Source: Opitutales bacterium (GTDB taxonomy: Bacteria; Verrucomicrobiota; Verrucomicrobiia; Opitutales; PNEW01). Taken from it: DNA of 64,000 nucleotides. Where the stretch lies: the NCBI GenBank assembly GCA_965197745.1, contig CBDANS010000007.1, positions 1,632,001 to 1,696,000 of the forward strand. The letters are read 5' to 3'. Position 1 is the first letter of the stretch; each line of letters starts with the position of its first letter. A program made the position numbers and the translations under genes. Under the pieces are notes generated by a model. The model was not told where the DNA came from. It saw nothing but the letters and a program-made list of their open reading frames with translations, and did no database searches. Below, one piece after another: positions 6,106-61,339 of the stretch.

Positions 6106-6168
6106 ATTTCACATTGCTTATGAACCCAGTCTTTATTTATTTTTCTGAAGTAGAGTATCAAAAATAAT

Positions 6169-8376
6169 ATGGCCACAGAATCTATATGCGGTGTCTGGAT
6201 AAGTCCAACTGGAGAAGCGCATCTATCCATAGGCGAGGGCAAGAACAAGCGTGAGGAAGTAGTAGAAAAATGGACACCCTTCCTTTGGGCTGATTCATTG
6301 CCGATAGGTGGGAAAGTGAGCGAAGAAAGGTTGAACGGTGATGACCCTTTCAAACACCTCTTGTCTTTCGAGATGATGGAGGATTTGCGCGATGCGACGC
6401 AAAAATCGCAAAGAAATTTCGCGATGGAAATGGTCCGGCCCTATGAGTGTCAATTTCTTCTATACTGTCAGAAACGCCTTTATGCTGAATTAAGTTTCAA
6501 TGATCTTCATCGCTGTCAATGTGACATAGAAACGGCTTGTTCCGTGGAGGGAAGCTTCAGCGATGCAAAGAGGAAGGAGGATCGCGTATTGGCCATAGGG
6601 CTCCATTTTAATGATGAGAGAAAAAGTCATTTATTGACCCTGGAAAATATAAGTGATGAAGCCGAGAGGGAGTTATTGCAGTCATTTAATTCCATCCTTC
6701 TCGAAGAGGACCCTGATGTAATTGAAGGTCATAATATTCACAGTTTTGATTTTCAATACCTTCGCCAGCGCGGGAAACGATTAAAGGTGCCCTGTGCCTG
6801 GGGGCGATTTGGAAAAGAAGCAAACTTTCGCAACAGTCGATTACGCGTAGCCGAACGCTGGGTGGATTTTGCACGTTGCGATATACCGGGGCGGGCGATC
6901 TTCGATTCTTATTTAGCCATTCAATTATTTGATCTGACGACGCGCGATTTAATTTCATACGGGCTCAAGGATGTCGCCATCTATCTTGGAATTACTGGTG
7001 GTGACCGTTCCAGTCGCACCTATATTGCCGGTGATAAAATTCAGCACGCATTTTCCGAAGATCGGGATACCTTTCTCGCGTATCTTGCCGATGATCTAAG
7101 AGAGACAAAAGGGGTTGCTGATATTTTGTTACCTACGTATTTTGCGCAAGCTCGCATATTCCCCATGACTTTACAGGAGATTCTTCTTCGTGGCAGCGCA
7201 TACAAAGTTGACCTCCTCTTGCTTGAAAAATATTACCATGCGCGTCGGAGCCTGCCCGCGATGCCTGAAGTGGGTAGTTTTGAAGGTGGGTATACGCGAA
7301 GTTTTAAAACCGGTATTTTTCATCATGTATTGCATTTTGACGTAGCTTCGCTTTATCCGAGTCTGCTCATAATTATGGAGCGCAATCCGTGTAATGACTC
7401 GCTTGGCATATTTGTTCCGTTGCTCAAAGAATTGAGAGAGTATCGATTGAAATACAAAGTATTGGCGAGAGAAGCTGAAAGTGAAGAACTTCGTAAAGAA
7501 TATTCAGCACGACAAAATAGTTTTAAGATACTTATAAATTCTTTTTATGGTTATCTGGGATTTGGTAATGCGCGATTTGCGGACAGTGAACTCGCGGCCG
7601 AAGTGACCCGTCGCGGTCGAGAGATATTGCAGTCCTTGATTGATGAATTCGGAAAATTGGGTTGTGGGGTATTGGAAGCTGATACGGACGGTATATATCT
7701 CACCTCCGAGGAATATCATAATCATCCGGATCGGTTACTAGAGAAGGTCTACCCTATATTACCGGAAGGACTCGAGTTGGAATATGATGGCCGCTATGAA
7801 GCAATTTTCTGTTACAAATCGAAAAATTACGCATTATATGATGGGACTAAAGTGACAATTAGGGGCTCCGCGCTGCGATCGCGCGGGATTGAACCCTACC
7901 TTAAATTACTCACTGACCAGCTTATTCGCTATCTCCTCGGTGTAGAAAAAGAATCGCCATTAATACGGGCTGAAGGATTACGCGGGGAGATTGAAAGCAG
8001 TCAAATTGACATATCACTTATAGCTAAATCAGAATACCTGAGCCAGCAACCCGAAGCTTACAAAAAGGCGGTGACCCAAAGTAAAAAACCGCGACGGGCC
8101 TCCCTCGAAGTTGCCTTACAAACAGAACCCATTCCTAAAATGGGTGAGCGCGTAACTTATTACATACTTCCAAAAGAAAAGGGAAAGACATCTGATTGGC
8201 AGCGCGCTCGCAATATCGCTGATTTTGATCCCCGGCAATTTCCTTTCGACCCCAGCTATTACACTAAAAAAATTGATGCCTGGATAAAGCGTTATAGTGA
8301 ATTTCTGGAAACAGAACAAGGAGACGATGCGGGAAAAAGCAATGAACAGATATCCTTGTTGCCCATCGATGAATGA
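6169..8376 (+). CDS. polB: Family B DNA polymerase (Pol II-like)
   Basis: Exonuclease DIET and GHNxxxFD; polymerase motifs FDVASLYPS, KILINSFYGYLG, ADTDG. Confidence 0.92.
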   Translation: MATESICGVWISPTGEAHLSIGEGKNKREEVVEKWTPFLWADSLPIGGKVSEERLNGDDPFKHLLSFEMMEDLRDATQKSQRNFAMEMVRPYECQFLLYCQKRLYAELSFNDLHRCQCDIETACSVEGSFSDAKRKEDRVLAIGLHFNDERKSHLLTLENISDEAERELLQSFNSILLEEDPDVIEGHNIHSFDFQYLRQRGKRLKVPCAWGRFGKEANFRNSRLRVAERWVDFARCDIPGRAIFDSYLAIQLFDLTTRDLISYGLKDVAIYLGITGGDRSSRTYIAGDKIQHAFSEDRDTFLAYLADDLRETKGVADILLPTYFAQARIFPMTLQEILLRGSAYKVDLLLLEKYYHARRSLPAMPEVGSFEGGYTRSFKTGIFHHVLHFDVASLYPSLLIIMERNPCNDSLGIFVPLLKELREYRLKYKVLAREAESEELRKEYSARQNSFKILINSFYGYLGFGNARFADSELAAEVTRRGREILQSLIDEFGKLGCGVLEADTDGIYLTSEEYHNHPDRLLEKVYPILPEGLELEYDGRYEAIFCYKSKNYALYDGTKVTIRGSALRSRGIEPYLKLLTDQLIRYLLGVEKESPLIRAEGLRGEIESSQIDISLIAKSEYLSQQPEAYKKAVTQSKKPRRASLEVALQTEPIPKMGERVTYYILPKEKGKTSDWQRARNIADFDPRQFPFDPSYYTKKIDAWIKRYSEFLETEQGDDAGKSNEQISLLPIDE

Positions 8377-9336
8377 TTAAAGACCGCGCATGAATTGAAA
8401 GACATGATCGGAATTACCGGGAAAATTTTCATGTCTGAAGTCGGGATATAGAGTCATTTCTTTTGGAGATTTTATCTTATTGTAAACGGCAAACTGGGTC
8501 GACGGAGGGCAGATTTCATCCATGAGACCAGTTCCCATATGTACTTTGCCTTCTATGCGTGGAGCTAAGTGTTGAACGTCAATGTAACCGAGTCGAGTGA
8601 AGATTTCATCTTCACGCTTATGCATCGGATCAAAGAGGCGAAAATAAAGTCTTAATTCTTCGTAAGCTAAATTGGCTAAATCCATTTCCCAGACTCTTTT
8701 ATAGTCAGATAAAAAAGGAGCATCTGGAGCAGCCAATTTTATCCTTGGCTCCAGGGCCGCGCAAGCAAGGGTAAGTCCGCCCCCTTGTGACCCTCCCATG
8801 GCACCGACACGATTCTCATCTACATCATCCATGTCCATGATAATGCCGGCAAGTTGTGCCGTATCTAAAAAAATGTTTCTGAATAACAAGGCGTCAGGGT
8901 GATCATCAATGCCGCGAATGAAATGGCCACGATGGGTAGTCCCTTTTACTTTGCCACTGTCTTCCGAGCGTCCTCCCGGGCCGCGGCAATCCATAGCCGC
9001 GACGGTATAACCCAGGGCGACATAGCCGAGTTTATTATACCAATCACCGGCGTTACCTGAATAACCATGGAAGGTGACAAGAGCTGGGTGTTTGTCCTTT
9101 GCATGTGCGGGTCTAAGCAGTTGAACATGGATTCTAGCCCCACCAGTACCGTTAAAATAGAGATGGAAGCATTCAGCATAAGGAACTTCGAACGGGCTTT
9201 TTATAAGCTCAAAATCTCCTCTTAAAGCCTTCATTTCGGAAAGAGCTCGATCCCAATATTTATCAAAGTCATCCGGGCGGGGATTAGTTCCATGGTATTT
9301 TTTCAATTCATCCAGCGGCATATCAATAAGCGGCAT
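8377..9336 (-). CDS. Acetyl xylan esterase / cephalosporin-C deacetylase (CE7)
   Basis: MPLIDMPL...PDDFDxYW, FHGY, GGSQGG nucleophile, DEICPP. Confidence 0.9.
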   Translation of the reverse strand: MPLIDMPLDELKKYHGTNPRPDDFDKYWDRALSEMKALRGDFELIKSPFEVPYAECFHLYFNGTGGARIHVQLLRPAHAKDKHPALVTFHGYSGNAGDWYNKLGYVALGYTVAAMDCRGPGGRSEDSGKVKGTTHRGHFIRGIDDHPDALLFRNIFLDTAQLAGIIMDMDDVDENRVGAMGGSQGGGLTLACAALEPRIKLAAPDAPFLSDYKRVWEMDLANLAYEELRLYFRLFDPMHKREDEIFTRLGYIDVQHLAPRIEGKVHMGTGLMDEICPPSTQFAVYNKIKSPKEMTLYPDFRHENFPGNSDHVFQFMRGL

Positions 9337-9390
9337 CTTTACTTCTCCTTTACTGCTTTCAGGAAAAAAAAGAGGTGGCCTTAACCATTC

Positions 9391-10368
9391 CTAACCCTGA
9401 TAGAGAGGCTCAAGGCCTTCGGCAAAGCGGTCAATATTTTCCTTCAAAGCACCGATACGTCTTCGACAGGTAGCTACCGTGACTCCCGCAATATGTGGCG
9501 TGGTAATTACGTTGGGGAGTTGAAAAAGCGGGGATTCCGGGTCAGGGGGTTCAGGATCAAATACATCCAAACCCGCACCGGCAATGCGCTTATTTTTTAA
9601 TGCTTCAATTAAGGCCGGCTCATCGACAAGCCCGCCGCGGGCCACGTTGATGAGGATTGCGCTTTTCTTCATAAGCTCGATCCTCCGGCTGTCGATCAGT
9701 TTTTCGGTCTCTGGAAGGAGCGGGACATGGAGTGATATAATGTCAGCTTGGGCAACAAGCTCATCGGTTTTTTCAGTTGTTCCAAAAGAATCAACTCCAT
9801 ATTCATCGAGTAATGTTTGCTCCATGGGTAAGAGGTCAACAGCCATGATTCGCATGGCACAAGCTTTGGCGCGGCGAGCGAGTTCACGACCACTGGCGCC
9901 GAATCCTATTAAGCCGAGGGTCATCCCTCCTAAATCATCCCCAATCGGATCCCACATTTTCTGATTCCGCAATGCTATTTGGGTTTCCTCGAATCGGCGA
10001 GTGATCAATAAAATCATCATGAGGGCGCATTCGGCTAGAGAGGCTCCACTAAAAATGCCGGGGGTGTGCGCCACTTTAAACCCGCGCCGGTGCATGTCGT
10101 CGAGATCGATAGCGTCAAGACCGATAGAGGGGACAAGCCAAAGGCCGGCATTGCGGGCAGCGCTGTCTATAATTTCATCAGTGAGATTTTTGCCCAGGTT
10201 AATGACCACTTCCTGCCCGGTAAATTGTTCTGGGACAGGTTTATTATAATCGAATATGGTTAATTCATGAGTCACACCAATAGTTGCCTCAATTTCTTTA
10301 TGCAGATTGATATCCCAATCTATGAATGGAGTATTTTTTTGTATTAAGATAACTTTTACACGTTTCAT
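9391..10368 (-). CDS. D-isomer-specific 2-hydroxyacid dehydrogenase
   Basis: GLIGFGASG, INVARG, LDVFxxEP, TPHIAG. Confidence 0.9.
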   Translation of the reverse strand: MKRVKVILIQKNTPFIDWDINLHKEIEATIGVTHELTIFDYNKPVPEQFTGQEVVINLGKNLTDEIIDSAARNAGLWLVPSIGLDAIDLDDMHRRGFKVAHTPGIFSGASLAECALMMILLITRRFEETQIALRNQKMWDPIGDDLGGMTLGLIGFGASGRELARRAKACAMRIMAVDLLPMEQTLLDEYGVDSFGTTEKTDELVAQADIISLHVPLLPETEKLIDSRRIELMKKSAILINVARGGLVDEPALIEALKNKRIAGAGLDVFDPEPPDPESPLFQLPNVITTPHIAGVTVATCRRRIGALKENIDRFAEGLEPLYQG

Positions 10369-10479
10369 TTTATAATTTTTTATTTATATGTGATTATTAA
10401 AAATGAGGATCGCAAGAATATTTCCAGAGAGCCAGGATTTGGATTGATAATTATCCTGATTTTCAATTAAGGAAACATA

Positions 10480-11433
10480 GTGATGCCATACAAAGTTACA
10501 TGGGGCGTGGAATTTATTACAAGTGAAGCCAGAGATCATTTTAGTAAAATTGATTGTGAGATAATAAAGAGCAACCTGAATAACCTGGGAGAGGAAGCGT
10601 TGGGCGAAATATTACACGACGCAGATGCGGTCATCGCCGGGGGTGAATACTATACGGAAAAGGTATTTAAAGCGGCAGAAAAATTAAAGATTGTGGCACG
10701 GGTTGGAGCCGGTTACGATCATGTTGACCTGGAATCAGCAACAAGGAATGGGGTGTGGGTAACAACTACTCCGGGGGCGAATAGTAATGCCGTTGCCGAC
10801 TTTACTCTCGGGCTCATTCTTATGATTACAAGAAATATCCATGGAATGGCTGGGGATATGAAGGATGGAAACTGGAATCAGTTCAGAGGATTGGAGTTGG
10901 CAGAATCGACGTTGGGAATTATTGGAGCCGGTTTAATAGGCAAGGAAGTCATAAAAAGAGCGAGGGCTTTTGGCACTCACGTTCTCGCACACGATATAAA
11001 TACGGATAAAGCGTTTGCGGTAAAGTGGTCGATTAAATATGTGGATCTGGATGAATTAGTCACGAAATCGGATATCATCAGCATCCATACAGCGTATAAT
11101 GAAGGGACGCGACACCTGATTGATGAAAAGAGATTACAATTCATGAAGCCTGGTGCTTACTTGATAAACACAAGCAGACCCGGAGTAGTGGATAAAGATG
11201 CCCTGATTGAAGTTCTTAAATCAAAGAAAATCGCAGGTGCGGCCATCGATGTTCATGACTCATACCCTTGCCTTCCAGATGATCCATTGGTCCAACTTGA
11301 GAATGTCATTGCCACTCCCTGGTCAGCGTATAATACGAATGGATCGATTGAAAATATGTGCCTTGAAGCAACAAAAGACGCGGTATCCGTTTTACAAGGT
11401 AACAAACCAAGGTACCCTGTTAATAAGCTCTAA
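10480..11433 (+). CDS. D-2-hydroxyacid / phosphoglycerate dehydrogenase-like protein
   Basis: RVGAGYDHVD, GIIGAGLIG, INTSR; the catalytic-His position reads TPW. Confidence 0.85.
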   Translation: MMPYKVTWGVEFITSEARDHFSKIDCEIIKSNLNNLGEEALGEILHDADAVIAGGEYYTEKVFKAAEKLKIVARVGAGYDHVDLESATRNGVWVTTTPGANSNAVADFTLGLILMITRNIHGMAGDMKDGNWNQFRGLELAESTLGIIGAGLIGKEVIKRARAFGTHVLAHDINTDKAFAVKWSIKYVDLDELVTKSDIISIHTAYNEGTRHLIDEKRLQFMKPGAYLINTSRPGVVDKDALIEVLKSKKIAGAAIDVHDSYPCLPDDPLVQLENVIATPWSAYNTNGSIENMCLEATKDAVSVLQGNKPRYPVNKL

Positions 11434-29081: not shown

Positions 29082-30230
29082 ATGAAAGCGTCTTTTACCC
29101 TGACTAAAAAGTTAAACCGAAGTGGCACTTATTCTTATCGTGTTCGCGGGCTTTTAAAGCGTAAGAGAATCGAAAAGAGTTTTAAGCATAAAGACCAGGC
29201 AAAACGCTGGATGGAAGCCAAAGAGTTGGAAGCCAAGTCCGATTCTTTAAAAACACAGATTACCCCGTTGACTGAAAATGAGCTGCGTGAAGCCGAGGTC
29301 GCTTACCATATGCTCAAAGGTAAATCGTTATTCAGCGCTGTGGATTATTATCTTAAAACCCATAGTGATACTTTAAACGTAAAAAACTTATACGATGCGT
29401 ATATAGAATTTTTAGGATCAAAAGAACAGGCCAATGCCCGTCCCCTGACGATTATAGATTTACGGGTGAAGGTGGGGGCTTTTGTCAATGGTTATCGAGA
29501 GAGGCAAGTCAACGAGGTAACCGACCATGAACTACGAAGCTTTTTACACAAACCGGGCTTATCGGGAGTAAGTATTAATAATTACCGTCGAGCCCTCATG
29601 GGTTTTTTCAATTGGTGTAAAAAACAGGAGTATCGATTGGATAACCCGGTAGAGAAAATAGAGATCATTAAAGTTGATCGGAAGCTACCTGAAATCTTTT
29701 CGTTAAAAGAGGTAACGCAATTGATTAATGAAGCTTTAAAGATAGAGGACGGGGCCCTGATACCTTATATTAGTATCGGGTTGTTTGCGGGGCTTCGTCC
29801 CTTTGAAATGCAACGGATCAGCTGGGCAGAGATCGATCTTGATGAAAGGTTAATCACCCTCCAGGGCAAGCACACCAAAAACAGGAATCATACAAGACAT
29901 GTCGACATCTCAGAGAACCTGTTCGAGTGGTTATTACCGGCAAGAGCGAGGATTTCAGCCATTTATCCCTCCCATTGGCACAAGCTTTTTAAGGAACTTA
30001 AAGATAAATGCAAAATAAAGAAGTGGCCCGTTGACATCATGCGCCACACCTATGGATCCATCCATTACCGTCATTATAATGATATCGGACTGACTGCCGC
30101 GCAGATGGGCAATTCACCGGACATTATTTTCAAACACTACAGGAATCTTGTTAAACCCAAGGAGGCTGCACTCTACTGGGAAGTACGCCCGAACCCTAAG
30201 GAGGCAACCCGCTTTAAGCAGGTATCTTAA
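29082..30230 (+). CDS. Phage-type tyrosine integrase
   Basis: FAGLRPFE (R), KHTK, MRHTYGS, QMGNSPDIIFKHY. Confidence 0.92.
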   Translation: MKASFTLTKKLNRSGTYSYRVRGLLKRKRIEKSFKHKDQAKRWMEAKELEAKSDSLKTQITPLTENELREAEVAYHMLKGKSLFSAVDYYLKTHSDTLNVKNLYDAYIEFLGSKEQANARPLTIIDLRVKVGAFVNGYRERQVNEVTDHELRSFLHKPGLSGVSINNYRRALMGFFNWCKKQEYRLDNPVEKIEIIKVDRKLPEIFSLKEVTQLINEALKIEDGALIPYISIGLFAGLRPFEMQRISWAEIDLDERLITLQGKHTKNRNHTRHVDISENLFEWLLPARARISAIYPSHWHKLFKELKDKCKIKKWPVDIMRHTYGSIHYRHYNDIGLTAAQMGNSPDIIFKHYRNLVKPKEAALYWEVRPNPKEATRFKQVS

Positions 30231-50290: not shown

Positions 50291-50700
50291 TCATCCCCGA
50301 GGGACTATTCGCCAGAAACGATCTGCTTCCTCAGTAGTTACCAGGTCGAGATAGTAATTACGGATCACGGATTCAGAGTTGCTTGCCTGAGGTGCAGCGT
50401 CTCCTACCGAGCGGAAGGACCCCACCGTCATCGAAATATAGGTATGCCGTAGGGCATTAGGTGGAGTTTGCGCTATTTACGGACATTAGCCTACATGTCG
50501 CGGAATCTCCTTGTTGGTATGGTGAGGTAGCTGCCAGGAGGATACTTCTCCAACCAGAGGCTACGGGTGGGCTGGATTTTAACGGATCGCTTATCCTTTA
50601 CTTTGGAGACATCCGGTTCGATAAGGATAACCCCGCTATCCCTATGGATGTGTTTAGGTTTGAGTTTGCTCATTTTACCGTGTTTCCAGTCAAGTCTGTA
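50291..50700 (-). pseudogene. Tyrosine integrase C-terminal remnant
   Basis: Translates ...IEPDVSKVKDKRSVKIQP... and NALRHTYISMTVGSFRSVGDAAPQASNSESVIRNYYLDL..FWRIVP*. Confidence 0.8.
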
Positions 50701-50835
50701 AACAAAGTTTTTCTTAATCTACTTCATAGGGAAATCTGGAGGTGCCATTACAGGTTCTGGTGCGATTAAACTTGTCTCCACCGGGCGCATAAATTTATTG
50801 TTTTGCCTCACAAGGGTCTGTTAATCGAGATTATT

Positions 50836-51032
50836 AAATTCACTCAAAAATTATTGACCGATTCCTGGCTGAACCTTACCAAAAAAGTATTCCTGCCCAT
50901 TCCTGCCAAACATTTTGAGGCAAGGTCAGGAAATTAGAGGAAAATATAAATTATTATTGTGCCGTTATTTAAGTATAACTAATTGTTAATAAGCAGTTTA
51001 TAAGGCATTATTGAGTCCCGTTCATAGTCGGT
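50836..51032. repeat. ~200-bp att-like repeat, copy 1
   Basis: ATTCCTGCC tandem, AT-rich core, ends ttattgagtcccgttcatagtcggt; near copies at 57400 and 60836. Confidence 0.9.
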
Positions 51033-51366
51033 TTCATCGAGTCGTTTCACAACCGCTTACGCGATGTACCGAGGAACGTAGTGACGACATAGCGAAGCGC
51101 TCATGTTTGAACCCTGAAGTGTTGCTCAGCGTGGCTGAAGCGCAAGTTCTAATCGAACAATGGCGTCAGACCTATAACAATGAACATCCCCACCGTCGAT
51201 CAGGCTTTCAAAGCCCACAAGAGTTTGTCACATTCCTTTCAGATCTTGGCCGCGTTCGGGCTACGCCCTCACTTCGCCAAGATCTCTCATATACATCAAT
51301 CCTAAAACCATTAACACCCGGTAGCTCTCTCACTTAATAATTGGTACGAAAAACGGGGTCCAATCA
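51033..51366 (+). mobile_element. IS3 type B 3' half starting at FIESF, with mini-insert 51067-51102
   Basis: Near-identical to reverse complement of 41280-41615; ends ggggtccaatca. Confidence 0.9.
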
Positions 51367-51559
51367 GTTTTTTAGAATATAAATTTAAAAAAGCGGTAAG
51401 GATCAGCTGAAGCTCAGCCACTGCTGAGCTATTGCGATTAAGCACCGTGTTTCACCTAACTTATATCCTATGTATACTCTGCGCTCTCTGCGTCTCCGCG
51501 GGAAAACATTTGCTGAACTGAATGTTGTATATTTAGATGTAACCCTATTAATCTAAGGC

Positions 51560-53158
51560 ATGATGGATCAACCGTTTCGACTGATATGGGAGGCTGAATG
51601 GAACGACATCGCGTGCGTGGATTACCCGCTAACGCCGGAGCAATGGCTGGGCGAATGCATACGCCCGCTAGAGGGGACGCAGGTAGACTGCCTGCTCTAC
51701 AACCTGTGCTCGTCGGACGCATACTGCTGTGACCTGGAGAGCGGCGAGATCCTGGGCGATGAGTTCGAGCAATTCCCGGATGCATGGGTTTGGCGCTATC
51801 GAGAGAATACCAAGAAGCTGATCGAGGCGAACGCGAACCCGCCAAAGCTTGCGTGTGAGTACGGGCGCCGCATGGGATTGAAGCTGATACCGGTCGTTCG
51901 CATGAATGATCCACACGACCAGGCTTACAAGTACGAGGTCAGCCGGTTCAAAATGGCCAACCTGCATCTGCTCTTGGGTTACACCGGACCGGATTGGCAG
52001 CCGCCTTGGGGGACTTGGTGGCGAGCGCACCCCAATCCCGAGAGTATGGACGCCACCAATTGGGGACTGTTTGATTTTGCGCACAAAGAGGTCCGCGACC
52101 ACAAAATGGCCATCATCGAGGAGTTCATCACCCGATGGGACAACGACGGCATCGCGCTTGATTTCGAACGCGATCCTCGCTACTTCAAAGAGTTCGGCAA
52201 GGCGGAAAACGCCGTGCTTATCACGGACATAGTGCGGCAAACGCGCGAGCTTCTGGACCGCGTGAGCTGCGAACGTAGTCGACCCATGTACCTGCATGTG
52301 CGTGTCGTGGCGGATATCGACACGTGCTGGCAACGAGGACTGGACGTGCACACGTGGGTGAAAGAGGGATTGGTCGACGTCGTTGTGCCTGGCGCCGGAT
52401 ACATGTTATTCGATATGGACCTTGGTCCGTGGTTGGAACTGGTCGAAGGGCATGACTGCTGGATATTCCCCTGCGTGAACCACTGGAGAAAGACGGAAGT
52501 GACCCGCGCCTGGGCCAAGTTGATGTATCAACGGGGAGCGCATGGGCTGCAACTGTTCAACTTCGGGCACTTGCTCTACGGACACGGTATAGATACGCCA
52601 CCGCAATCCGAACGGACAGGGACGGTCTGGTACGACGATCTGCACCCGGAGTATTACCGTGTGCTGCACGAGATCCACGATCCGGGCGTGATTGCCTTTC
52701 TCAACTGCGATTACGATCTCGATTCACATCCGCGCGCACCAAACCAGGGAGCTCATTCGGGACAGAACCACAGGACCTACCGGGGTATCGACGCGATCGT
52801 GCTCCCTGTGGAGCTGTCGGTTGGGTCACACGTCATCCCGTTCGGGATTGCCGATGATCTGGAAGCGGCGCGGCAACGGGCGCTGTCGCCGAGAGTCACC
52901 TTGCACTTGCAGGTACACAACTTCACGCGGCCCGATGAGTATAAGGTCTCAGTTAACGGAAGCTTATTGCCGGGAGATGCTCGGAGCACTCGGGCGCAGT
53001 TTATCATGGACAATTTTACCCGAATGACTTATCTCCTGCCGCCCGATGTCTTGAGGCTCGGTCAGAATGAATTGAAGATCGAAGTGGAACGCCTCAACCC
53101 GGCAATTTGCGTGACTCCGCGGCTGGATCACGTCGAGATTCTCGTGCAATATGCCTGA
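51560..53158 (+). CDS. Glycoside-hydrolase-like TIM-barrel protein (GHL10/DUF187-like)
   Basis: VRMNDPH, FDFAHKEVRD, DGIALDFER, TWVKEGLVD; higher GC than the core genes. Confidence 0.7.
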   Translation: MMDQPFRLIWEAEWNDIACVDYPLTPEQWLGECIRPLEGTQVDCLLYNLCSSDAYCCDLESGEILGDEFEQFPDAWVWRYRENTKKLIEANANPPKLACEYGRRMGLKLIPVVRMNDPHDQAYKYEVSRFKMANLHLLLGYTGPDWQPPWGTWWRAHPNPESMDATNWGLFDFAHKEVRDHKMAIIEEFITRWDNDGIALDFERDPRYFKEFGKAENAVLITDIVRQTRELLDRVSCERSRPMYLHVRVVADIDTCWQRGLDVHTWVKEGLVDVVVPGAGYMLFDMDLGPWLELVEGHDCWIFPCVNHWRKTEVTRAWAKLMYQRGAHGLQLFNFGHLLYGHGIDTPPQSERTGTVWYDDLHPEYYRVLHEIHDPGVIAFLNCDYDLDSHPRAPNQGAHSGQNHRTYRGIDAIVLPVELSVGSHVIPFGIADDLEAARQRALSPRVTLHLQVHNFTRPDEYKVSVNGSLLPGDARSTRAQFIMDNFTRMTYLLPPDVLRLGQNELKIEVERLNPAICVTPRLDHVEILVQYA

Positions 53159-53263
53159 GCGCACCCGTTTAGTGTGCTACATGCACAATTCAGAACAGAT
53201 CAGAATATTACTTCCGCGCTCTGGGTGTCAATCAGGCCGTCTCAATTGCGGATTGATTCCATT

Positions 53264-53418
53264 TGTCATCGCGAAGGAAGCGTAGCTGACTGTGGCTACC
53301 GAGCGTGAAACGCGACATCTTCTATTCCAGGGGGCTGTCAATACGTGACCGACATCCTCCTGGAGTGGAAGATGTCGCTGAGCTCGGTAGCTTCGTCGCA
53401 TTGCTCCTCGCAATGACA
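53264..53418. repeat. Palindromic REP/RPE-like element (TGTCAT.GCGA...TCGCAATGACA), both arms carrying mini-inserts
   Basis: Terminal inverted arms; inserts 53297-53316 (+) and 53374-53389 (-). Confidence 0.85.
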
Positions 53419-53466
53419 AGAGGATAATTACGAAGATAAGGATTATATTCGATAACCGTTAGACAC

Positions 53467-53550
53467 AATCCGTAATCCGTACCGAGAGCTAAGCGCGACA
53501 TCCCTCATTCCGCATTCCGTACCGAGGGCGAAGACCGACATCCATAATCG
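53467..53550 (+). repeat. 7-bp (ATCCGNA/TTCCGCA) tandem tract with two 20-nt mini-inserts
   Basis: Inserts taccgagagctaagcgcgac 53480-53499 and taccgagggcgaagaccgac 53520-53539. Confidence 0.8.
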
Positions 53551-53552
53551 TC

Positions 53553-54259
53553 TCACTCGATCGTTACCTCATCGACAGCAATGGTGATCTCATCACCCTC
53601 TTCATTAACGAAGGTTGCATTGATATTTTGAGTCGGTTGAGGAGTGTTGTCAGATTTAAAATTGTTCTGCGTAATCAAGGTATCAAATTCTCGCGTCGTC
53701 GATCCGCTCTCCGCGACTACGATCGAAGCTCCATTTGTCTGTGCCAGGTCTCCTCCAGTGATCCGCAACCCGGGGTTGCTGGCCGGCACCGTGAAGGAAC
53801 CTTCTCCAAACAGCAAATGTGGTACTGCATCGTCACTGGCATCGATGTCACCTACGGTTAAGCGTACTGCTATCGGTACTCCGCGTGCATCGACGCCTAC
53901 TTTGCCGGTGTCTCCACTGAAGACAGTATTCGACAACTGAATCCCTCCCATCCCCGTGGAGTTGATCACTTCCACCAAGGTGACGTCGGCTTGCGCGTCA
54001 TAAACCTGTCCCTCGGGGAAGAGCGCCTGGTTCACCGCGTTGATCGATCCCACCGTAAAGATACTGAAGAAGGTACTGGAGTCAGCTCCATCGATGACTA
54101 CGCTCGGCTTACCGGTCACGTACTCGACGGCCTGGTTGTAGCGTAGGGGTGGAGCCGGAGGCAGGAAGGTGGCCGGGTCCAAGATTACAGTAAAGGTCCC
54201 TGCGCCCGAGAACTCTACCTGCACAATGTCCTCATTTTCGTCCATGAAGGAGACCCGTG
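53553..54259 (-). pseudogene. C-terminal domain of a large secreted protein, 5'-truncated by IS
   Basis: TRVSFMDENEDIVQVEFSGAG... closely paralogous to 63345-64000; cut by the IS end at 54260. Confidence 0.85.
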
Positions 54260-55687
54260 TGATCGGACCCCGTTATTCGTACCAATTATTAAGTGAGAGA
54301 GTTACCGGGTGTTAATGGTTTTAGGATTGATGTATATGAGAGATCCTGGCGCAGTGAGGGCGTAGCCCGAACGCGGCCAGGATCGGAAAGGAATCTGACA
54401 AACTCTTGTGGGCTTTTAAAGCCTAAACGACTGTGGGGATGTTCATTGTTATAGGTCTGACGCCATTGTTCGATTAGAACTTGCGCTTCAGCCACGCTGA
54501 GCAACACATCAGGGTTCAAACATGAGCGCTTCGCTATGTCGTCACTACGTTCCTCGGTACATCGCGTAAGCGGTTGTGAAACGACTCGATGAAACCGTTT
54601 GTTATTCTCGCTTTGGCTCGTTGAGGTGTCGCTTCGCTCGGTAGCCAGGGACTACCCGGATCGATATATATCGCCTTGATGTTTTTTTCACGCAACCACC
54701 GCTGTACTTGATGAGCGATAAATGGCTTCGCATGTCGTCGCTTTGCTCCTCGGAACACTGCCATTATCACTGCGGATATAGCTGGGAGCTCCCTCCTTTT
54801 CAATGGCCTCGCTAAGCACAGAGAGGACATCCGATGAGGTGAGTTGACGAGCTACCCGGATATCCAGACATTCACGCGTATATGGCTTCGCTTCGCTTGA
54901 GTGTCGTCGCTTTCAGCTCCTCGGTACATCGATCAGAGTCATCATCTTTAATGGACCGCCATTGTCTGTGCGATCATGGACAAAGTCCCAGGACCAAAGG
55001 TGATTGCGACCGGTTGCTTTAGGAGGCGACCCTGTAGAGACTCCTTGACGGTGTCTGCGCTTTTTTGGTGGCTTTACCTGTAAGCCCGAAGAACGTCGCA
55101 CTGCCTGTACAAATTTCCTGCTCGCCGCCCAGCCTTCCTTCACCAGCAAGGCACGGATGCGCCGGTAACCGTAGCGGGGATGTTCCCAGGACAGGGTTAC
55201 AATCCGCTCGGCCAACCGCTGAGCTTTCTTACTGGTCTGCCTGGGCCGGTAGCTGTACGTTGACCAACTGAGGCTGAGATAAGCACAAGCCCTCTAAAAC
55301 GAGCACAGCCCTCTCTCAGCCGCATCTTTTACTGCTCGCTTCTTCTGCTTGGGGCTCACCATTTTTTTGAGAGCGTTTCCTCCAACACCCGAAGCTTGAG
55401 CATTTGATCAGCGAGCATCTTCTTCAGCTCCGTATTCTCCTTTTCCAGCTCTTTAAATCGCTTCGCATCAGCCAGCTCCAAGGTGCCATACTTTTTGCCC
55501 CAGCGATAGAAGGTCTGTTCACTTAGGTTGTTGCCGCGGCAGACTTCCTGCACGGTTTTGCCCGTATCGGGCTGCCGGAGTATTGCTATGATCTGTTCTG
55601 TTGTATATCCTTTTCTTTTCATTGAGGTTATCGGGTTATCCCCATAACCTCTCTCTGTTAATGATACCATTTTTGGGGGTCACTCCA
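54260..55687 (-). mobile_element. IS3-family element (type B2) disrupted by the same four mini-inserts
   Basis: Paralog of B1; inserts 54524-54559, 54601-54643, 54724-54755, 54884-54926. Confidence 0.93.
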
Positions 55688-55689
55688 TT

Positions 55690-56229
55690 TTGCCTCGGGA
55701 GTTCATCGAAACGTTTATCGAGGCCTCCTCAAAGTATGCGGAAGTCACCGACGAATTAAACAACTTCATCGATCGGCTCAACCAGGTAAAATCAGCTGAG
55801 ACCGATAACCTGACTGAGGTCGAGATTGATTCCATGTTTTATTTTGACCCGAAATTTGTGGACGAGGTGGACGAGGCAGGACTCGAACTGAAAAAGCTAT
55901 ATCTAAAAGAATTTGCAGTAGATATGCACTACCAATCGACCAATGTTTTCTGGATTGGAGAAGGGACTGAAAAAGAACTTTATCCTGAAGGAGATGATAC
56001 AAAACCTGTCTTTGGGGGAAACGCGATCTATTACAGAAGTAAGGACAATTTACCTTCATGGATTCCAGACGATAAAGTAAATCTTGAGTTGCCTCCCCCA
56101 TCGAATTTTAATCCCCGTTTGCATACCGACCCGGATACAGAACCCTTTATCTGGGTTCCTGCTGGAACATGGGGATTCTTTTGTATTGATCGACAATGGA
56201 AGATAGCGATCATCCGTTCTGGAACATAA
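55690..56229 (+). CDS. Acidic hypothetical protein, probably 5'-truncated by IS
   Basis: ORF begins 2 nt after the IS end at a TTG. Confidence 0.5.
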   Translation: MPREFIETFIEASSKYAEVTDELNNFIDRLNQVKSAETDNLTEVEIDSMFYFDPKFVDEVDEAGLELKKLYLKEFAVDMHYQSTNVFWIGEGTEKELYPEGDDTKPVFGGNAIYYRSKDNLPSWIPDDKVNLELPPPSNFNPRLHTDPDTEPFIWVPAGTWGFFCIDRQWKIAIIRSGT

Positions 56230-56438
56230 TTCGATCGACTGGGATGAAACAGTTTAGCCGAGTAAACGAGCGAAGACAGCCATTGGCAAAGGAAGAGAAG
56301 TCAAAGGATGATGGGATTAATCATGCCTAATCCTCGTGCTTCAGTATTGAGTCGGCATTCCCCAACCTTACAAAGTACATCCGTCATTTTGAATGGTTGA
56401 CACTGTCGCAATTTCCAGTCACCTCGACACTTGAATAG

Positions 56439-56470
56439 TGATCGGACCCCATTATTCGCACCAGTTTAAG
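56439..56470 (-). mobile_element. Orphan IS3 type B right end
   Basis: TGATCGGACCCCATTATTCGCACCAGTT resembles the end at 54260. Confidence 0.65.
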
Positions 56471-56673
56471 TAAGGGAGCAAGGGAAATCAAAGATGGCCT
56501 AAGCACATTGTCGACCTGTTACCGGATTCGTTCGAGGAGTCGGAGTAATGACTGAGCTGAACTAAGTGAAGCACCAACCCATAACCCTCAAAGTCATTAC
56601 GATTTACGAACTGCCTTTCGACTGCGCCAGCCAGAGACAACGAATAACTCCATGGTGATGTACCCACGAGCCG

Positions 56674-57138
56674 TTACCGGGCGGGGGCATCCACAGCCAA
56701 ATCGGTGGTGATGAGGGCGAAAATGCCCTCTATATCGCGCGCCGGGACAGAGCGGGTGATCATCCAAATCTCACCGCCACCCGCATCAAAGTAAGGGGCT
56801 GTCCAGACGCCCGTATTCGCTGCCAATGGCGCTGTAACCCAGACCTGAGTCTCAATGTTGTAGGTGGGTGTGGCGAGGTCGTGGGTGGCGTAGCCGTCGG
56901 CGGTGCGATAGACATAGGGGCAAGTGGTGACCACACCAGCATGATCGAGCAGCGCAGCGGCACTGCCGTGGAACGCGGGGTTGGCCTCCAAGTAGGCCCG
57001 TAAGCGCTCCGTATACGCGGCTGGATTGGCTGGTCGTTCCACCTCCAACTCTGCCACCAAGGTGTCGAGGGCGGCAACCACCGCAGTCTTCAAGCCCTCC
57101 TGAGTGGGCGCGCTAGGACTACAGCCTTGGGCAGTCAA
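56674..57138 (-). CDS. Stand-alone dCache/PDC sensor-like protein (start uncertain)
   Basis: PYVYR..; W...P....GVWTAPYFDAGGGEIWMITRSVP. Confidence 0.75.
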   Translation of the reverse strand: MTAQGCSPSAPTQEGLKTAVVAALDTLVAELEVERPANPAAYTERLRAYLEANPAFHGSAAALLDHAGVVTTCPYVYRTADGYATHDLATPTYNIETQVWVTAPLAANTGVWTAPYFDAGGGEIWMITRSVPARDIEGIFALITTDLAVDAPAR

Positions 57139-57261
57139 GAAGGTAAGCAGCAGCAGAGACAGGGCCGCTGCTCGAACATGAGGTGATGGGTTTGGAACCT
57201 AGGGGCGATGTATTGCCATGGAGCGTAAACGAGACGGGTTGGTTTAGGGACTGATATACAC

Positions 57262-57386
57262 AACTGTACTTGTTGCCTTGTTGCAACTTGATCTAACAGA
57301 CACTGTTTTATCAAATCGCAACTCTTCCAGAGAATAACATTGATTGTTTTCTTCTCAACTTCCAATCAAATAATAAGTTATCGTCG
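57262..57386 (-). repeat. Dispersed repeat, inverted copy of 57772-57890
   Basis: gatctaacagacactg...aaatcgcaactcttccagagaataacattgattgttttcttctcaacttcc is the near reverse complement. Confidence 0.85.
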
Positions 57387-57399
57387 TGGAGTGCCCCAA

Positions 57400-57588
57400 A
57401 AATCCACTCGAAAATTCTTGGCCGATTCCTGGTCGAATATCATCAAAAAATATGATTCCTGCCAAACATTTAGAGGCAAGGTCAGGAAGTTAGAGGAAAA
57501 TATAAATTATTATTGAATCGTTATTTACGTGTAACTAATTGTTATTAAGCAGCTTAAAAATCATTATTGAGTCCCGTTCATAGTCGGT
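57400..57588. repeat. ~200-bp att-like repeat, copy 2
   Basis: Same sequence as copy 1; preceded by an IS left-end stub TGGAGTGCCCCAAAAA. Confidence 0.9.
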
Positions 57589-58119
57589 ACATCGAGTCGT
57601 TCCACAACCTCTCACCCGATGTACCTAGGAACGTAGTGACGACATAGCGAAGCGCTCATGTTTGAACCGTGAAGTGTGCTCAGTGTGGCTGAAGTGTACA
57701 AAACGGTATTTGATATTAGGGACAGTGTCAGATTCAAGAGCCGCTTGTACGAATATTTTCTTCTCAACTTCTGACGATAACTTTTTGGTTGATCGGAAGT
57801 TGAGAAGAAAACAATCAATGTTATTCTCTGGAAGAGTTGCGATTTGATCAAGCAGTGTCTGATAGATCTAGTCGTAACAAGTACAGCCTGAAGCTCAAGG
57901 GGTAATCGAACCATGCCGTCATACCTACAACCATGAACATTCCCACAGTCGTTTAGTCTTTAAAAGCTCGCAAGAGTTTGTCAGTTTCCTCTCCGACCTT
58001 GGCCACGTTCGGGCTGCGCCCTCACTTCGCCAGGATCTCTCATATACATCACTCCTTAAACCATTAACACCCCGTAACTCTCTCTCTTAATAATTGATTC
58101 GAATAACGGGGTCCAATCA
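57589..58119 (+). mobile_element. IS3 type B 3' half (mini-insert 57622-57657), interrupted by a dispersed repeat at ~57697-57890
   Basis: atcgagtcgttccacaacc...; ends ggggtccaatca. Confidence 0.8.
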
Positions 58120-58130
58120 GGTTAATTAGG

Positions 58131-60206
58131 TCAAAAACTTAAACGTATACCGGTAGTAATATTCCACCCCGGCAGCGGAGCAACATCTTTCAAAACTGAG
58201 GAGTGTACGCGGCCTTCTGCATCTGTTAAATTTTTGCCGATGACGAAGACTTCCCATTCGACACTTCTGAATTGCAAGCGGTAGGCAAAGTCGGCATTGA
58301 GGAAAGTGTAACTGTCGGTGAGAAATTCTCCGGGTGCCACACGGTCCTGCTCTCCGTGGTGGCTAACGGCAATACCTGCTGTCCAGGTTGGCGTTTCCTG
58401 CTCCAGTCGCGTGCCGAAACGCCAGGGCGGTATACGCGGAAGCGGAGTATCAATAGACTCATTCGTCGCGCGCACAAAATCAGAGGTCATGATGAGGTGA
58501 AGGCGTTTGCTTTCGGTATCGATAAAATGGAGCGTCGCTTCCGCTTCCAGACCGTAAAACGTGGCTTCGCTTTCCGTGTATTCGAATATCCCGAAACCTT
58601 CTGCCTCTAGCTCTCCGAAGCGGGTTTCTGCTTCCTCAAGTTCGAGTTCGTTTAGATAGATGAAGTTGTCGAAAGCGTTGTAATAAAAATTGACTGATCC
58701 AGTTATAAATCCCGTCATTTTCCTTAGAGAGAGATCAAGACCGAATGCTTCCTCAAGGTTCAACGTCATATTCCCTATCTCAAAAGACTGTGTCGCGACG
58801 TGGGGTCCAAAAGCCAGCAATTCCGTGGCGCTCGGGGCGCGTTGGGAGAAGGTGATTGAGGACGCCGCTGCCCATTCGTCGGCGGGATTATAAACCAGTC
58901 CAGTTGAAACGTTAAGCGTGGATTCATCGCCCTTACGAAAAACAGTCTCGCCAGGGTCGATTTCCTGATTCTCATAGCGAAAACCGAACTCCCAAGATCC
59001 CCAGTCAAACTCCGCACGCTCAACAATGAATAGTGCCCAATTCAAAGTCTCATTTGAGGGGATGAAAGCCTCATCACCGATGGCAGCGAAGTCATCATGC
59101 TTGAAGTTAAATCCTAGAACACCATTAAATCCCACCATGGGCTGGTGCACTGCGAGAATACGCGCTTCGACTCCATCTCGATCAAACTGGGTGCCGACTG
59201 CGTCGCCTTCCAGCTCGGTATGCATGTAATCCACTACCCCGAGACGAAATTCAGTGCTTTCCAAAAAAAGGACCGGTTCACGGATTTCTGCTCTCAGGTC
59301 AAAACGATATTGCTCGAGGTCGATGGAAACCAATTCCTCTTCACCCTCTTCTTCATGTCCATGGCTTCGGGGCACACCATACAGGCTGTTATAGGTGGAG
59401 ACCGAGGCGCCGAAGGTTCCTTTGTCCCAAAACCAGGCAAAACCCGCAGTTCCGCTCTCAGTTTCAACTGCGCTGTTTTCCAGCACACCAGAAACTTCAT
59501 CTTCTACTTCCCTTTCAGCTTCTTCCAACGCGCGAAACCGGGCCGACTCGGCAAAACCGGGTATCTCCACATCTTCAGACTCTCGGATAGCGCCGCCGAC
59601 ATGCCAGGCGAAATTACCTGCCGCTCCTTCAATCGAGACAACGCCACTGACCTCATCCGCCGCCGTGCCAAAGCGAAATTCTCCATTCCCACTTAAGGGT
59701 GCTTCGGGCTTCTCGCGGGGAATATCCTTACCTATCACATTGACGATTCCCCCGATGGCTGAATTGCCGTAAAGCAAAGTAGCTGCCCCGCGCACGATTT
59801 CCACCCGTTCGGTCAACAGGGGTTCAATACCCACAGCGTGGTCGGGACTGGTGTTGGAGACGTCGAAACTGTCGATATCACTGGTCAATACGCGCACGCG
59901 TTCGCCATCGAAACCGCGGATAATGGGTCGACTCGCACCCGGCCCAAAGTAACTCGAATTGATCCCTGGCTGGTTGCTTAATGTCTCTCCCAGGGTGGAC
60001 TGAGCACTACGCTTTAGGTTACTTTTATCAAGGACGGTTGCCGGAAGGGCTATATCTTTTAAATCATCTACGAGTGGACCTGCTGAAACGATATACTGTT
60101 TGAGTTCAACGACACTTTCATCGCTGTCTTCAGCTTGAACGTAAAGCTGAGAAATTACTAAGGCAGGTATTAAACCTGTGAGTATAACTCTTTTTAGCAC
60201 GTTCAT
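58131..60206 (-). CDS. TonB-dependent receptor, ZnuD-like metal uptake type
   Basis: STLGETL..PG..SSYFGPGASRPIIRG, SPDHAV, HGHEEE loop, GPHVAT, C-terminal F. Confidence 0.88.
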   Translation of the reverse strand: MNVLKRVILTGLIPALVISQLYVQAEDSDESVVELKQYIVSAGPLVDDLKDIALPATVLDKSNLKRSAQSTLGETLSNQPGINSSYFGPGASRPIIRGFDGERVRVLTSDIDSFDVSNTSPDHAVGIEPLLTERVEIVRGAATLLYGNSAIGGIVNVIGKDIPREKPEAPLSGNGEFRFGTAADEVSGVVSIEGAAGNFAWHVGGAIRESEDVEIPGFAESARFRALEEAEREVEDEVSGVLENSAVETESGTAGFAWFWDKGTFGASVSTYNSLYGVPRSHGHEEEGEEELVSIDLEQYRFDLRAEIREPVLFLESTEFRLGVVDYMHTELEGDAVGTQFDRDGVEARILAVHQPMVGFNGVLGFNFKHDDFAAIGDEAFIPSNETLNWALFIVERAEFDWGSWEFGFRYENQEIDPGETVFRKGDESTLNVSTGLVYNPADEWAAASSITFSQRAPSATELLAFGPHVATQSFEIGNMTLNLEEAFGLDLSLRKMTGFITGSVNFYYNAFDNFIYLNELELEEAETRFGELEAEGFGIFEYTESEATFYGLEAEATLHFIDTESKRLHLIMTSDFVRATNESIDTPLPRIPPWRFGTRLEQETPTWTAGIAVSHHGEQDRVAPGEFLTDSYTFLNADFAYRLQFRSVEWEVFVIGKNLTDAEGRVHSSVLKDVAPLPGWNITTGIRLSF

Positions 60207-60274
60207 AGGAAAAAATTAACCCTCTAAATCGTTCTTGAGAATCGAAGCAAGCTATGTATGTAAAGTCAACCTGA

Positions 60275-60295
60275 TAATGCAAGTTACTTGCATTA
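60275..60295. promoter_or_regulatory. Perfect 10-1-10 palindrome, candidate Fur-family (Zur-like) operator
   Basis: TAATGCAAGT-T-ACTTGCATTA about 70 bp upstream of the receptor start. Confidence 0.65.
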
Positions 60296-60319
60296 GTGTA
60301 TTTATCGTTAAACAACAAT

Positions 60320-60781
60320 CTCACCATTGTCGATCAATACACTCGAGCTTGCCCACTGCTTCTGGCCGATACGTCCATCGGTGGGCACAAAACCGCCGCA
60401 GGAATCGGTCTTCCCCAAGCCATTACCGTCGATAATGGGCCCAAGTTTGTCGGCAAAGTACTGAATCAGTGAGCTTATGGCCACGGCATCGAGATGGATT
60501 TTATTCGCCCAGGCAAACCCGTAGAGAATGGTTATATTGAGAGCTTCAATGGACGCTTACGCGATGAACTTCTTAACACGGCGCTATTTTATACGCTGGC
60601 TGAAGCGAAAGAAAAACTTGAAGCTTGGCGACTTGATTATAATACTCAAGGATCACACAGCTCTCTGAGCTATCGGCCTCCAGCGCGAATACGCATAGAG
60701 AGCCGTGTATAATCAAATCAAAACTCTTACCACTCTGCCGGAATTAACACTGGCTCTGATACAGTAACCGGAAGCAGATCA
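60320..60781 (+). mobile_element. Decayed IS3 3' fragment
   Basis: [33 protein letters not shown]. Confidence 0.8.
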
Positions 60782-60835
60782 TATCCCGATAACCTCTCTC
60801 TTTAAATGATTCGATTTTTGGGGGTTACCCCCGTT

Positions 60836-61034
60836 AAATCCACTCGAAAATTCTTGGCCGATTCCTGGTCGAATATCATCAAAAAATATGATTCCTGCCC
60901 ATTCCTGCCAAACATTTAGAGGCAAGGTCAGGAAATTAGAGGAAAATATAAATTATTATTGTATCGTTATTTAAGTGTAACTAATTGTTAATAAGTAGCT
61001 TATAAGGTATTATTGAGTCCCGTTCATAGTCGGT
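60836..61034. repeat. ~200-bp att-like repeat, copy 3
   Basis: Same as copies 1 and 2; preceded by an IS type B left-end stub at 60785-60832. Confidence 0.9.
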
Positions 61035-61339
61035 TACATCGAATCATTGCATGCCCGTTTTCGCGAGGAGTGTCTAAATCGTGAACAGCTGTGGACTTTG
61101 ACCGAAGCCCGCGTGGTGATCGAAGATTGGCGCTGGCTTTACAATCATGTTCGACCCCACCGCAGCCTCGGCAATATTACTCCACAACGTTTCGCTGAAA
61201 ACCTCTAGACCGAAGGCTCGGGCTCCATTCGGGCTACGCCCTCATTGCGCCCAAGTCTTGACTTCCTCTACCAACTTAACTTCAACATTAACCTCTCCAG
61301 ACTAACTCTCACAGTGGACCAGTTTGTGTAACCCGACCA
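61035..61339 (+). mobile_element. IS3 type A 3' half starting at YIES
   Basis: Near-identical to 36249-36553, ending gtgtaacccgacca. Confidence 0.9.

Follow-up and report, generated by a model that had tools for sequence, protein, structure and literature searches.

The window analysed here, a stretch of 64,000 nucleotides from the genome of a marine Opitutales bacterium (G000; positions 1632001-1696000 of its contig C7, other contigs being denoted likewise), contains three direct copies of a repeat of about 200 bp, each of which runs straight into the 3' part of an insertion sequence (IS) of the IS3 family. Viewed alongside the other copies of the repeat in this genome and in two relatives of the same family (G001 and G002), these joints probably mark one end of a family of integrative genomic islands, 16-45 kb long and encoding a tyrosine integrase (int428), that have docked recurrently in IS3 transposase genes.

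Results

The three copies, located by a repeat search and by direct reading, occupy positions 50836..51032, 57400..57588 and 60836..61034 of the window, all on the forward strand, with copies 1 and 2 showing 89-90% identity to the copy at 60836. All three terminate in ...GAGTCCCGTTCATAGTCGGT (in a longer reading of the end, ...CCCGTTCATAGTCGGT) and then enter the 3' third of IS3 orfB between the NG and the (F/Y)IES of the encoded protein. Copy 1 continues as TTC ATC GAG TCG (F I E S) of an element that we term IS type B (IS-B), copy 2 as (T)AC ATC GAG TCG of the same type, with one T missing at the joint, and copy 3 as TAC ATC GAA TCA (Y I E S) of type A (IS-A, which is 1318 nt long and about 65% alike to IS-B). 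In each case the IS part reaches the right end of the element, at 51366, 58119 and 61339, respectively. The type B part behind copy 1 (51033..51366, forward strand) begins at the core overlap TTCATCGA, followed by the right arm GTCGTT, and includes a 37-nt mini-insert (51067-51103); it is 97% identical to full-length IS-B copies with the same insert. Behind copy 2, the type B part (57589..58119, forward strand) is in two pieces (57589-57677 and 57888-58119), and behind copy 3 the type A part (61035..61339, forward strand; IS-A positions 1010-1318) begins at the overlap TACATCGA and is 98% identical to the full-length copy at C1:8406-8705. The preliminary description of this locus, which reported three fusions to IS3 at (F/Y)IES, two with type B and one with type A, thus holds, and the tandem ATTCCTGCC boxes that it assigned to the repeat are present in copies 1 and 3, whereas copy 2 has one box fewer and retains a single one. 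The target has the features of an IS3-family element, namely orfA, a run of AAAAAAA, SDNG.., ..NG(F/Y)IES.. and ends of the form TGG..ATCA, as judged from IS-A and IS-B translations and alignment; the rve domain was scored by Pfam in a third IS3-type element only.

Across the source genome, the repeat occurs 15 times (at E<=3e-25), its copies being 76-100% identical to copy 3. Eight of these are joined to IS3 at the same nucleotide, directly after ...CATAGTCGGT; the partner is type B in five cases, type A in two and a B/A chimera in the remaining one. The other seven have different neighbors: three are followed by TCTG(C/T)CTC..TCGTCT, one by TATCAGCT, one lies in the middle of a gene for a substrate-binding protein (SBP), one, a diverged copy, directly precedes a tRNA 3' end, and one is unclear. 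To the left, eight copies extend into conserved non-coding DNA and the others are truncated by IS ends; the ragged left side reflects later IS insertions and rearrangements. The repeat is present in two of the 40 relatives searched by DNA, both of the same family, with several more IS3 joints of this kind in G002, and a 25-nt degenerate pattern of the repeat recovered G001 alone (two places) from a collection of genome contigs and one chance match, inside a large open reading frame (ORF), from metagenome contigs.

Within the repeat, the hexamer TTCCTG occurs two to three times in forward and zero to one time in reverse orientation in all 13 copies counted, about 30-fold above the 0.08 expected per 200 nt, which makes these boxes candidate arm-type repeated sites of an attP. 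No ORF of at least 90 aa common to the copies lies to the left of the repeat and no long ORF occurs within 1.4 kb on that side, where a conserved ORF (MKNNKFMRPVETS..) has a length of only about 40 aa. A gene in this position was considered and rejected, as the 1.4 kb to the left differ between two loci by frequent 1-nt indels with no codon periodicity.

What the repeat belongs to is apparent from islands that are complete. One of 15.8 kb (C7:150384-166160) is absent from G001 and G002, where its flanks lie 350 nt apart; a copy of the repeat (C7:150510) sits 125 nt inside one of its ends, and an ORF of 428 aa, int428, reads inward at the other. An island at C4:135231-166211, with int428 at its left and the repeat at its right, is likewise absent from both relatives, and across the two empty sites the flanks are 350-450 nt apart. 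In both islands, int428 and the repeat lie at opposite ends, in the same orientation and 14-29 kb apart, and each of four copies that are joined neither to IS3 nor to a split gene has int428 14-43 kb upstream on the same strand. Because int428 and the repeat are paired in this manner across islands, we interpret the repeat as the distal arm of the attachment (att) site, termed here the P arm (attR side), as distinct from the P' arm beside int428 (attL side), in four of five cases of which one TTCCT(G/T) box is found. That the repeat is an att arm of an integrative element with a tyrosine integrase, as had been proposed, is therefore borne out by the int428 islands, their empty sites and the direct core repeats described below.

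The ends of three islands share such a direct core repeat. In the C7 island, attL reads GAAGACGGG, TCTGCCTC, CCCGTCTT, followed by an AT-rich arm and int428, and attR reads ATAGTCGGT, TCTGCCTC, TTCGTCTTC, such that each end consists of two inverted half-sites 12 nt apart around the shared 8-mer TCTGCCTC. The ends of the C4 island (..ATCGG, TATCAGCT, CCCGTCT and ..AGTCGA, TATCAGCT, TCCGTTG) share the 8-mer TATCAGCT, and those of a third island, in G002 (CATACGGT, AGAGATCA, CCGTCAT and TAGTCGAT, AGAGATCA, CCGTCTTG), share AGAGATCA(CCGTC). The general pattern is a left arm ..ACGG(N), about 8 nt that are shared, and a right arm (Y)CGTCT. A further site of this form is the SBP transporter gene, which is intact in G001 and G002 and split in G000 exactly at the end of the P arm (TTAGATGA, TTATACGG, TTCGTTAC); because the gene is intact in both relatives, it represents an independent target site (attB). 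Between the halves of this gene, and directly left of an arm copy, lies an 8-kb row of enzyme genes on one strand (L033, G000:C6:1186001-1200500, positions 3893-10593), among them two APH-type kinases, two methyltransferases, a HIT protein and a protein with a beta-lactamase fold. Outside the window, at C7:997531, there is an apparently unoccupied site that closely fits the canonical island core (GAAGACGGG TCTGCCTA CTCGTCTTC).

In the layout of the islands, attL (B, overlap, P' arm) is followed by the inward-reading integrase gene, the cargo, the P arm and attR (P, overlap, B'). Presumably, int428 would recognise inverted half-sites of the approximate form A-N-A-C-G-G and C-G-T-C/T-T, 12 nt apart, the last bases of the P arm (AGTCGGT) would act as the left core half-site, and strand exchange would occur directly after this half-site (..AGTCGGT). 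Comparison of the ends points to a rule of ACGG-N10-YCGT, with exchange right after ACGG plus one nucleotide; int428 may tolerate differences in the overlap, or each island lineage may have an overlap of its own. In the single island that was annotated, the cargo comprises genes for transport, peptidase, sensor and outer-membrane functions, with neither phage nor conjugation genes among them.

The IS3 transposase gene offers the same arrangement. Its site, AAAACGGT, TTCATCGA, GTCGTTTC, has arms and spacing as in the island ends: intact IS-B reads CAAAACGGT TTCATCGA GTCGTTTC across the joint and intact IS-A reads CAGAACGGA TACATCGA ATCGTTGC, both with AACGG and TCGTT at the 12-nt spacing that separates AAGACG..CGTCTT at island ends, and the P arm is joined exactly at the start of the overlap. 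The stretch encodes Q-N-G-F/Y-I-E-S-F, with the sequence (A/G)AACGG(T/A) T(T/A)CATCGA (G/A)TCGTT, in about 70 copies per genome. Because IS3 thus presents the half-sites of the islands at equal spacing in some 70 copies, it is a recurrent attB, though not the sole one. The original proposal that the conserved stretch of IS3 orfB serves as attB is upheld, with both IS types used, but seven of 15 P arms in G000 and five of nine close int428 copies across the three genomes lie elsewhere.

The reciprocal joint that the preliminary description had proposed to look for, an IS3 5' half leading into foreign DNA, occurs beside an intact integrase in all three genomes and with both IS types. It consists of the 5' part of IS3 through ..AACGG(A/T) T(A/T)CATCGA (..PWQNG(Y/F)IE), then the P' arm and then intact int428; in G000, at C7:1066376, IS-A positions 1-1027 run through ..CAGAACGGAT-CATCGAATCGTTT into the P' arm and intact int428. 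Such a 5' part precedes one of the five int428 copies in G000, both copies in G001 (one with IS-A, one with IS-B) and one of the two close copies in G002. The 5' part at this joint in G000 is also the only one of the 76 IS3 copies retaining the 5' side of the site that enters foreign DNA. In G002, IS-A 1-1026 followed by the P' arm and integrase lies 45 kb from a P arm followed by IS-A 1010-1318 in the same orientation, the layout that would be expected of a whole island within one IS copy. Orientation is constant in all 12 joints: int428 is co-oriented with the transposase gene in all four of attL type, and the IS part is in sense in all eight of attR type in G000. Landing at this site would set the integrase gene directly behind a truncated transposase gene, co-oriented with it, and, if the E of (F/Y)IES is the glutamate of the IS3 DDE triad, as we take it to be, would part this residue from both aspartates.

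The IS3 copies themselves carry further insertions. Mini-inserts of 31-43 nt that share ..CCGAGGAGC..GCGACGACA..GCGAAGC.. occur genome-wide in the transposase core of IS-A and IS-B, always in sense, between LID and YTR, SDNGS and EF, PW and QNG, or RLRD and ECLN. One net insert of 31 nt occupies an identical site in IS-A and IS-B and disrupts the reading frame of about 68 copies in G000; insert-free copies at this site number eight in G000, four in G001 and 57 in G002, and both forms are present as DNA in contigs from public runs. Because insert-free IS copies exist, a role of the mini-inserts as recoding or bypass signals is less likely.

The integrase int428 matches PF00589 (E 4.5e-11; 43.3 bits, against a cut-off of 27.1) and has, in addition, weak SAM-like N-domains, and its matches in NCBIfam are distant and of Xer type, below their cut-offs. 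Candidate motifs for the catalytic residues (R..K..H..R..H/W..Y), namely ..AGLRSTE.., ..AMRHSFGSY.. and ..LGHRS..FDHYRSL, were read by eye in the translation, and a PDB match spans residues 211-327 only. The five copies in G000 are 84-100% identical among themselves, and together with two each in G001 and G002 they form a close clade of nine (at least 83% identity), of which four are situated in IS3 transposase genes, three at an intergenic repeat, two at other sites and none in a tRNA gene. More distant homologues (33-53% identical) are present in 18 of 198 other Opitutales genomes sampled beyond these three; in 21 of the 25 homologue loci examined, a tRNA or tmRNA gene lies beside the integrase gene, and in none of the 25 does an IS3 motif. 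Because these relatives mostly reside at tRNA and tmRNA genes, and none at the IS3 motif, IS3 targeting is a derived habit of the close clade. G000 itself has a relative with 50% identity at tRNA-Asp, the 3' end of which is repeated on a diverged arm at a distance of 66 kb.

Several comparisons address whether the IS3 joints arose once or repeatedly. Although the arm at C6:1451150 shares only 82-83% identity with other arms, the IS-B part joined to it matches full-length IS-B at 99.7%; for copies 1 and 3, the full-length subfamilies nearest to their IS parts (97-98%) are not the same. Moreover, the IS type behind copy 1 differs from that behind its counterpart in G002, an arm 99% identical to it, and copy 3 differs from its own counterpart in the same way, the exchange between G000 and G002 falling within about 27 nt of the joint. 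The combination of a diverged arm with a young IS part, along with these swapped IS types, implies that joints arose, or were re-formed, on several occasions. A further contribution comes from homologous recombination among IS copies: Full-length B/A chimeric copies cross over in the same conserved stretch (C6:1443261 and C6:1313831), and four of six full-length IS-A copies in G000 lack a matching 4-bp target duplication, with only two keeping one, which points to frequent recombination between IS copies. The diverged arm with its near-identical IS-B part, and the differing subfamilies of the other IS parts, speak against one inherited fusion.

This recombination is what lends some weight to the notion that a single, old and accidental fusion of the repeat to IS3 was spread by segmental duplication, with the A and B forms produced by homologous recombination or gene conversion and no site-specific enzyme involved; the chimeras in the same stretch, one joint that is itself chimeric (C6:1180324), the missing IS-A duplications and the swapped right flanks of copies 1 and 3 would all fit. 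Such an account leaves unexplained the reciprocal joints of IS3 5' part, P' arm and integrase gene in three genomes, the common half-sites and their equal spacing, and the diverged arm with a young IS-B part, nor does it explain why the arm ends with equal precision at unrelated sequences, at least five in number, one of them a gene that both relatives keep intact. As the sole cause, a single fusion is largely refuted, and we consider it very improbable overall. Still more remote is the idea that a transposase-driven or retro-type element (a rolling-circle, IS605-like or IS110-like element with a guide RNA, or a 5'-truncated retroelement) has the repeat as its fixed end, which would be joined to varied DNA. 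It would suit the one sharp and one ragged end and the lack of a long ORF and of codon periodicity within 1.4 kb on the left, but there is no Rfam match, group II introns included, no transposase or reverse transcriptase is linked, and the arm is paired with int428 across islands that have empty sites and direct repeats at their ends. Searches of part of the window and five loci against Rfam (E<=1-5) for a structured RNA, group II intron or retroelement end gave chance-level matches only. Other candidates were likewise set aside: an IS3-derived miniature inverted-repeat transposable element (MITE) composed of left and right ends, as the left border of the repeat is unlike the left end of the IS; an integron attI, as the cognate integrase is not beside the arm but at the island's other end, and no attC-like array lies downstream of the arm; and a tie to a repeat that bounds cassettes in G000, for which BLAST of three right flanks against the 13-kb region yielded a single 41-nt match (E 3.5e-4).

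A closer competitor accepts the islands and regards their joints to IS3 as rare accidents at a secondary site, without preference, IS3 being hit simply because its roughly 70 copies account for a large share of the core-like sequences of the genome. IS3 accounts for 70 of the 259 sites in G000 that fit ACGG-N10-YCGT and for 32 of the 72 that fit the stricter ACGG-N10-YCGTYT, and the complete islands with empty sites in relatives occupy sites other than IS3. Set against this, the eight of 15 arms in G000 and four of nine close attL joints that involve IS3 exceed its 27% share of the loose sites, in a count that is soft and affected by kinship. We judge this explanation unlikely, although it carries more weight than either of the preceding two, and favor recurrent docking of int428 islands in IS3. 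A number of observations weigh against the latter. In three non-IS3 sites, the right half-site lies 1 nt out of register, and in three to four others it is poor; no island has been proven to hold both halves of one IS3 copy, and the 4-bp target duplications of the halves mismatch, a test that is uninformative in G000 because four of six intact IS-A copies mismatch as well. Among the eight IS3-joined arms in G000, only that at C7:981669 has int428 within 60 kb upstream. Some of the differences between A and B joints may be due to homologous recombination or gene conversion, and because the three genomes are kin, their joint counts are not independent, such that some joints, for example the IS-A attL, may be one inherited event. 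Contigs speak neither for nor against current activity of the islands: for the 19-kb locus of the C7 island, neither an excised circle nor an empty site with a joint across the island was seen in the contigs of four public runs (three studies), among the 15 of 56 joints listed.

The window copies, none of which has int428 nearby, are best read as orphan attR-type remnants, in which a P arm and an IS3 3' part persist without the rest of the island. They would be either what is left of islands that integrated in IS3 and then decayed, or the product of a deletion by the integrase between attR and a co-oriented IS3 site farther downstream. To the left of copy 1, the native continuation of the P arm (50696..50835, forward strand), which is kept in eight of 15 copies and in some reaches about -290 or beyond, is fused to the middle of an integrase gene, the decayed C-terminal half of a tyrosine integrase of a 409-aa type (50291..50700, reverse strand). 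This remnant has about 82% DNA identity to the intact 409-aa genes at C5:6565-7791 and C7:1464784-1466010, a family that is 23-25% identical to int428. The decayed integrase to which the preliminary description drew attention is consequently real, but it is non-cognate and was brought there by rearrangement, the cognate integrase being the one that adjoins the P' arm, at the other end of the island. Copy 2 retains about 1.7 kb of the usual right-end module of the islands, including a 179-aa ORF (55690..56229, forward strand) that matched no Pfam family; members of its gene family occur in the C4 island and in a relative as well, to the left of the arm at a distance of 1.2-1.5 kb. On its left, copy 3 is truncated by the third IS3-family element, the 3' end of which (60494..60835, forward strand) has its terminus directly against the first base of the arm, a joint seen in three of 15 copies.

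Between copies 1 and 2 lies a full-length IS3 of type B with mini-inserts (54260..55690, reverse strand), in which the NGFIES site is unoccupied and which is therefore a potential attB. Copy 2 is enclosed by a unit at 57277..57881 (no strand assigned) with inverted arms of 109 nt (57277-57385 and 57773-57881) that splits its IS-B part; the arms are 91% complementary, the same left joint recurs at C6:659041, and the unit may be a foldback or MITE-like element. A further tyrosine integrase gene in the window, at 29085-30209 on the forward strand, is 32-33% identical to int428 and scores 27.0 bits against PF00589, the cut-off being 27.1.

Discussion

The mechanism suggested by these islands, that of a tyrosine-integrase island, is standard, and what is unusual is the docking site, the best-conserved coding part of IS3, which is present in many copies and encodes a protein motif. 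Integrase islands are usually described in tRNA genes or in a few single-copy host genes. The close int428 clade would offer a concrete case of a target switch from tRNA-like symmetry to a protein-coding motif, and it indicates that, when an IS expands, large cargo islands can gain dozens of landing pads. Docking in IS3 would also explain in part the scrambled and IS-rich organization of these symbiont-type genomes.

A bolder and doubtful extension is that a tRNA-type integrase lineage switched to the DNA encoding ..NG(F/Y)IES.., captured the IS3 overlap, and is now a dedicated parasite or silencer of IS3. If so, selection on the transposase would hold the site constant, and each burst of IS3 would multiply the landing pads; after landing, the overlap in attP would be that of IS3, and any IS3 copy would then be a preferred target. 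Landing would split the DDE triad, killing the IS copy, and leave the integrase gene downstream of the promoter and frameshift signal of IS3, such that the mobility of the islands would be coupled to IS3 expression, and the islands would be parasites of IS3 or, for the host, IS3 silencers. The label of hyperparasite proposed at the outset, in the sense of dependence on, or harm to, active IS3, is not supported.

Like the islands and prophages that lambda-type integrases direct to tRNA and tmRNA genes, the int428 islands have a PF00589 integrase by attL, short repeats at their ends, arm boxes and polymorphic empty sites; unlike them, the close clade lies off tRNA genes, and the shared overlap varies from island to island. 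Secondary att sites of the lambda type, and elements with coupling sequences such as Tn916 and CTnDOT, make use of core-like sites despite differences in the overlap. The int428 islands resemble these in using core-like half-sites with differing overlaps and in a product that keeps the overlap of the target, and differ from Tn916 and CTnDOT in that the one annotated island showed no conjugation genes. Elements of the IS110/IS1111 family insert into repeats or ends of other mobile elements, as do IS4321 and IS5075 in the inverted repeats of Tn21-type transposons. Site-specific insertion into a conserved sequence of another mobile element is common to IS4321/IS5075 and the int428 islands, the latter being moved, in our interpretation, by an enzyme of another class, a tyrosine integrase with arm sites, and carrying 16-45 kb of cargo rather than being small IS elements.

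The nearest precedent within one full-text paper collection is a one-line mention of a phage-inducible chromosomal island (PICI) in an IS110 transposase gene (PMC10111431). That paper names PICI EcCIDi14 at this site, as well as helper-embedded PICIs in the late genes of prophages, and notes that integrative elements can target other mobile elements (PMC10111431). As far as the PICIs are characterized in that mention, they and the int428 islands have in common that an integrase-driven island resides inside, and co-oriented with, a gene of another mobile element (PMC10111431). Unlike those PICIs, the int428 islands, in which no phage link was seen, carry transport and enzyme genes as cargo, and their target is the stretch encoding the DDE motif of IS3, available in about 70 copies and in two IS types.

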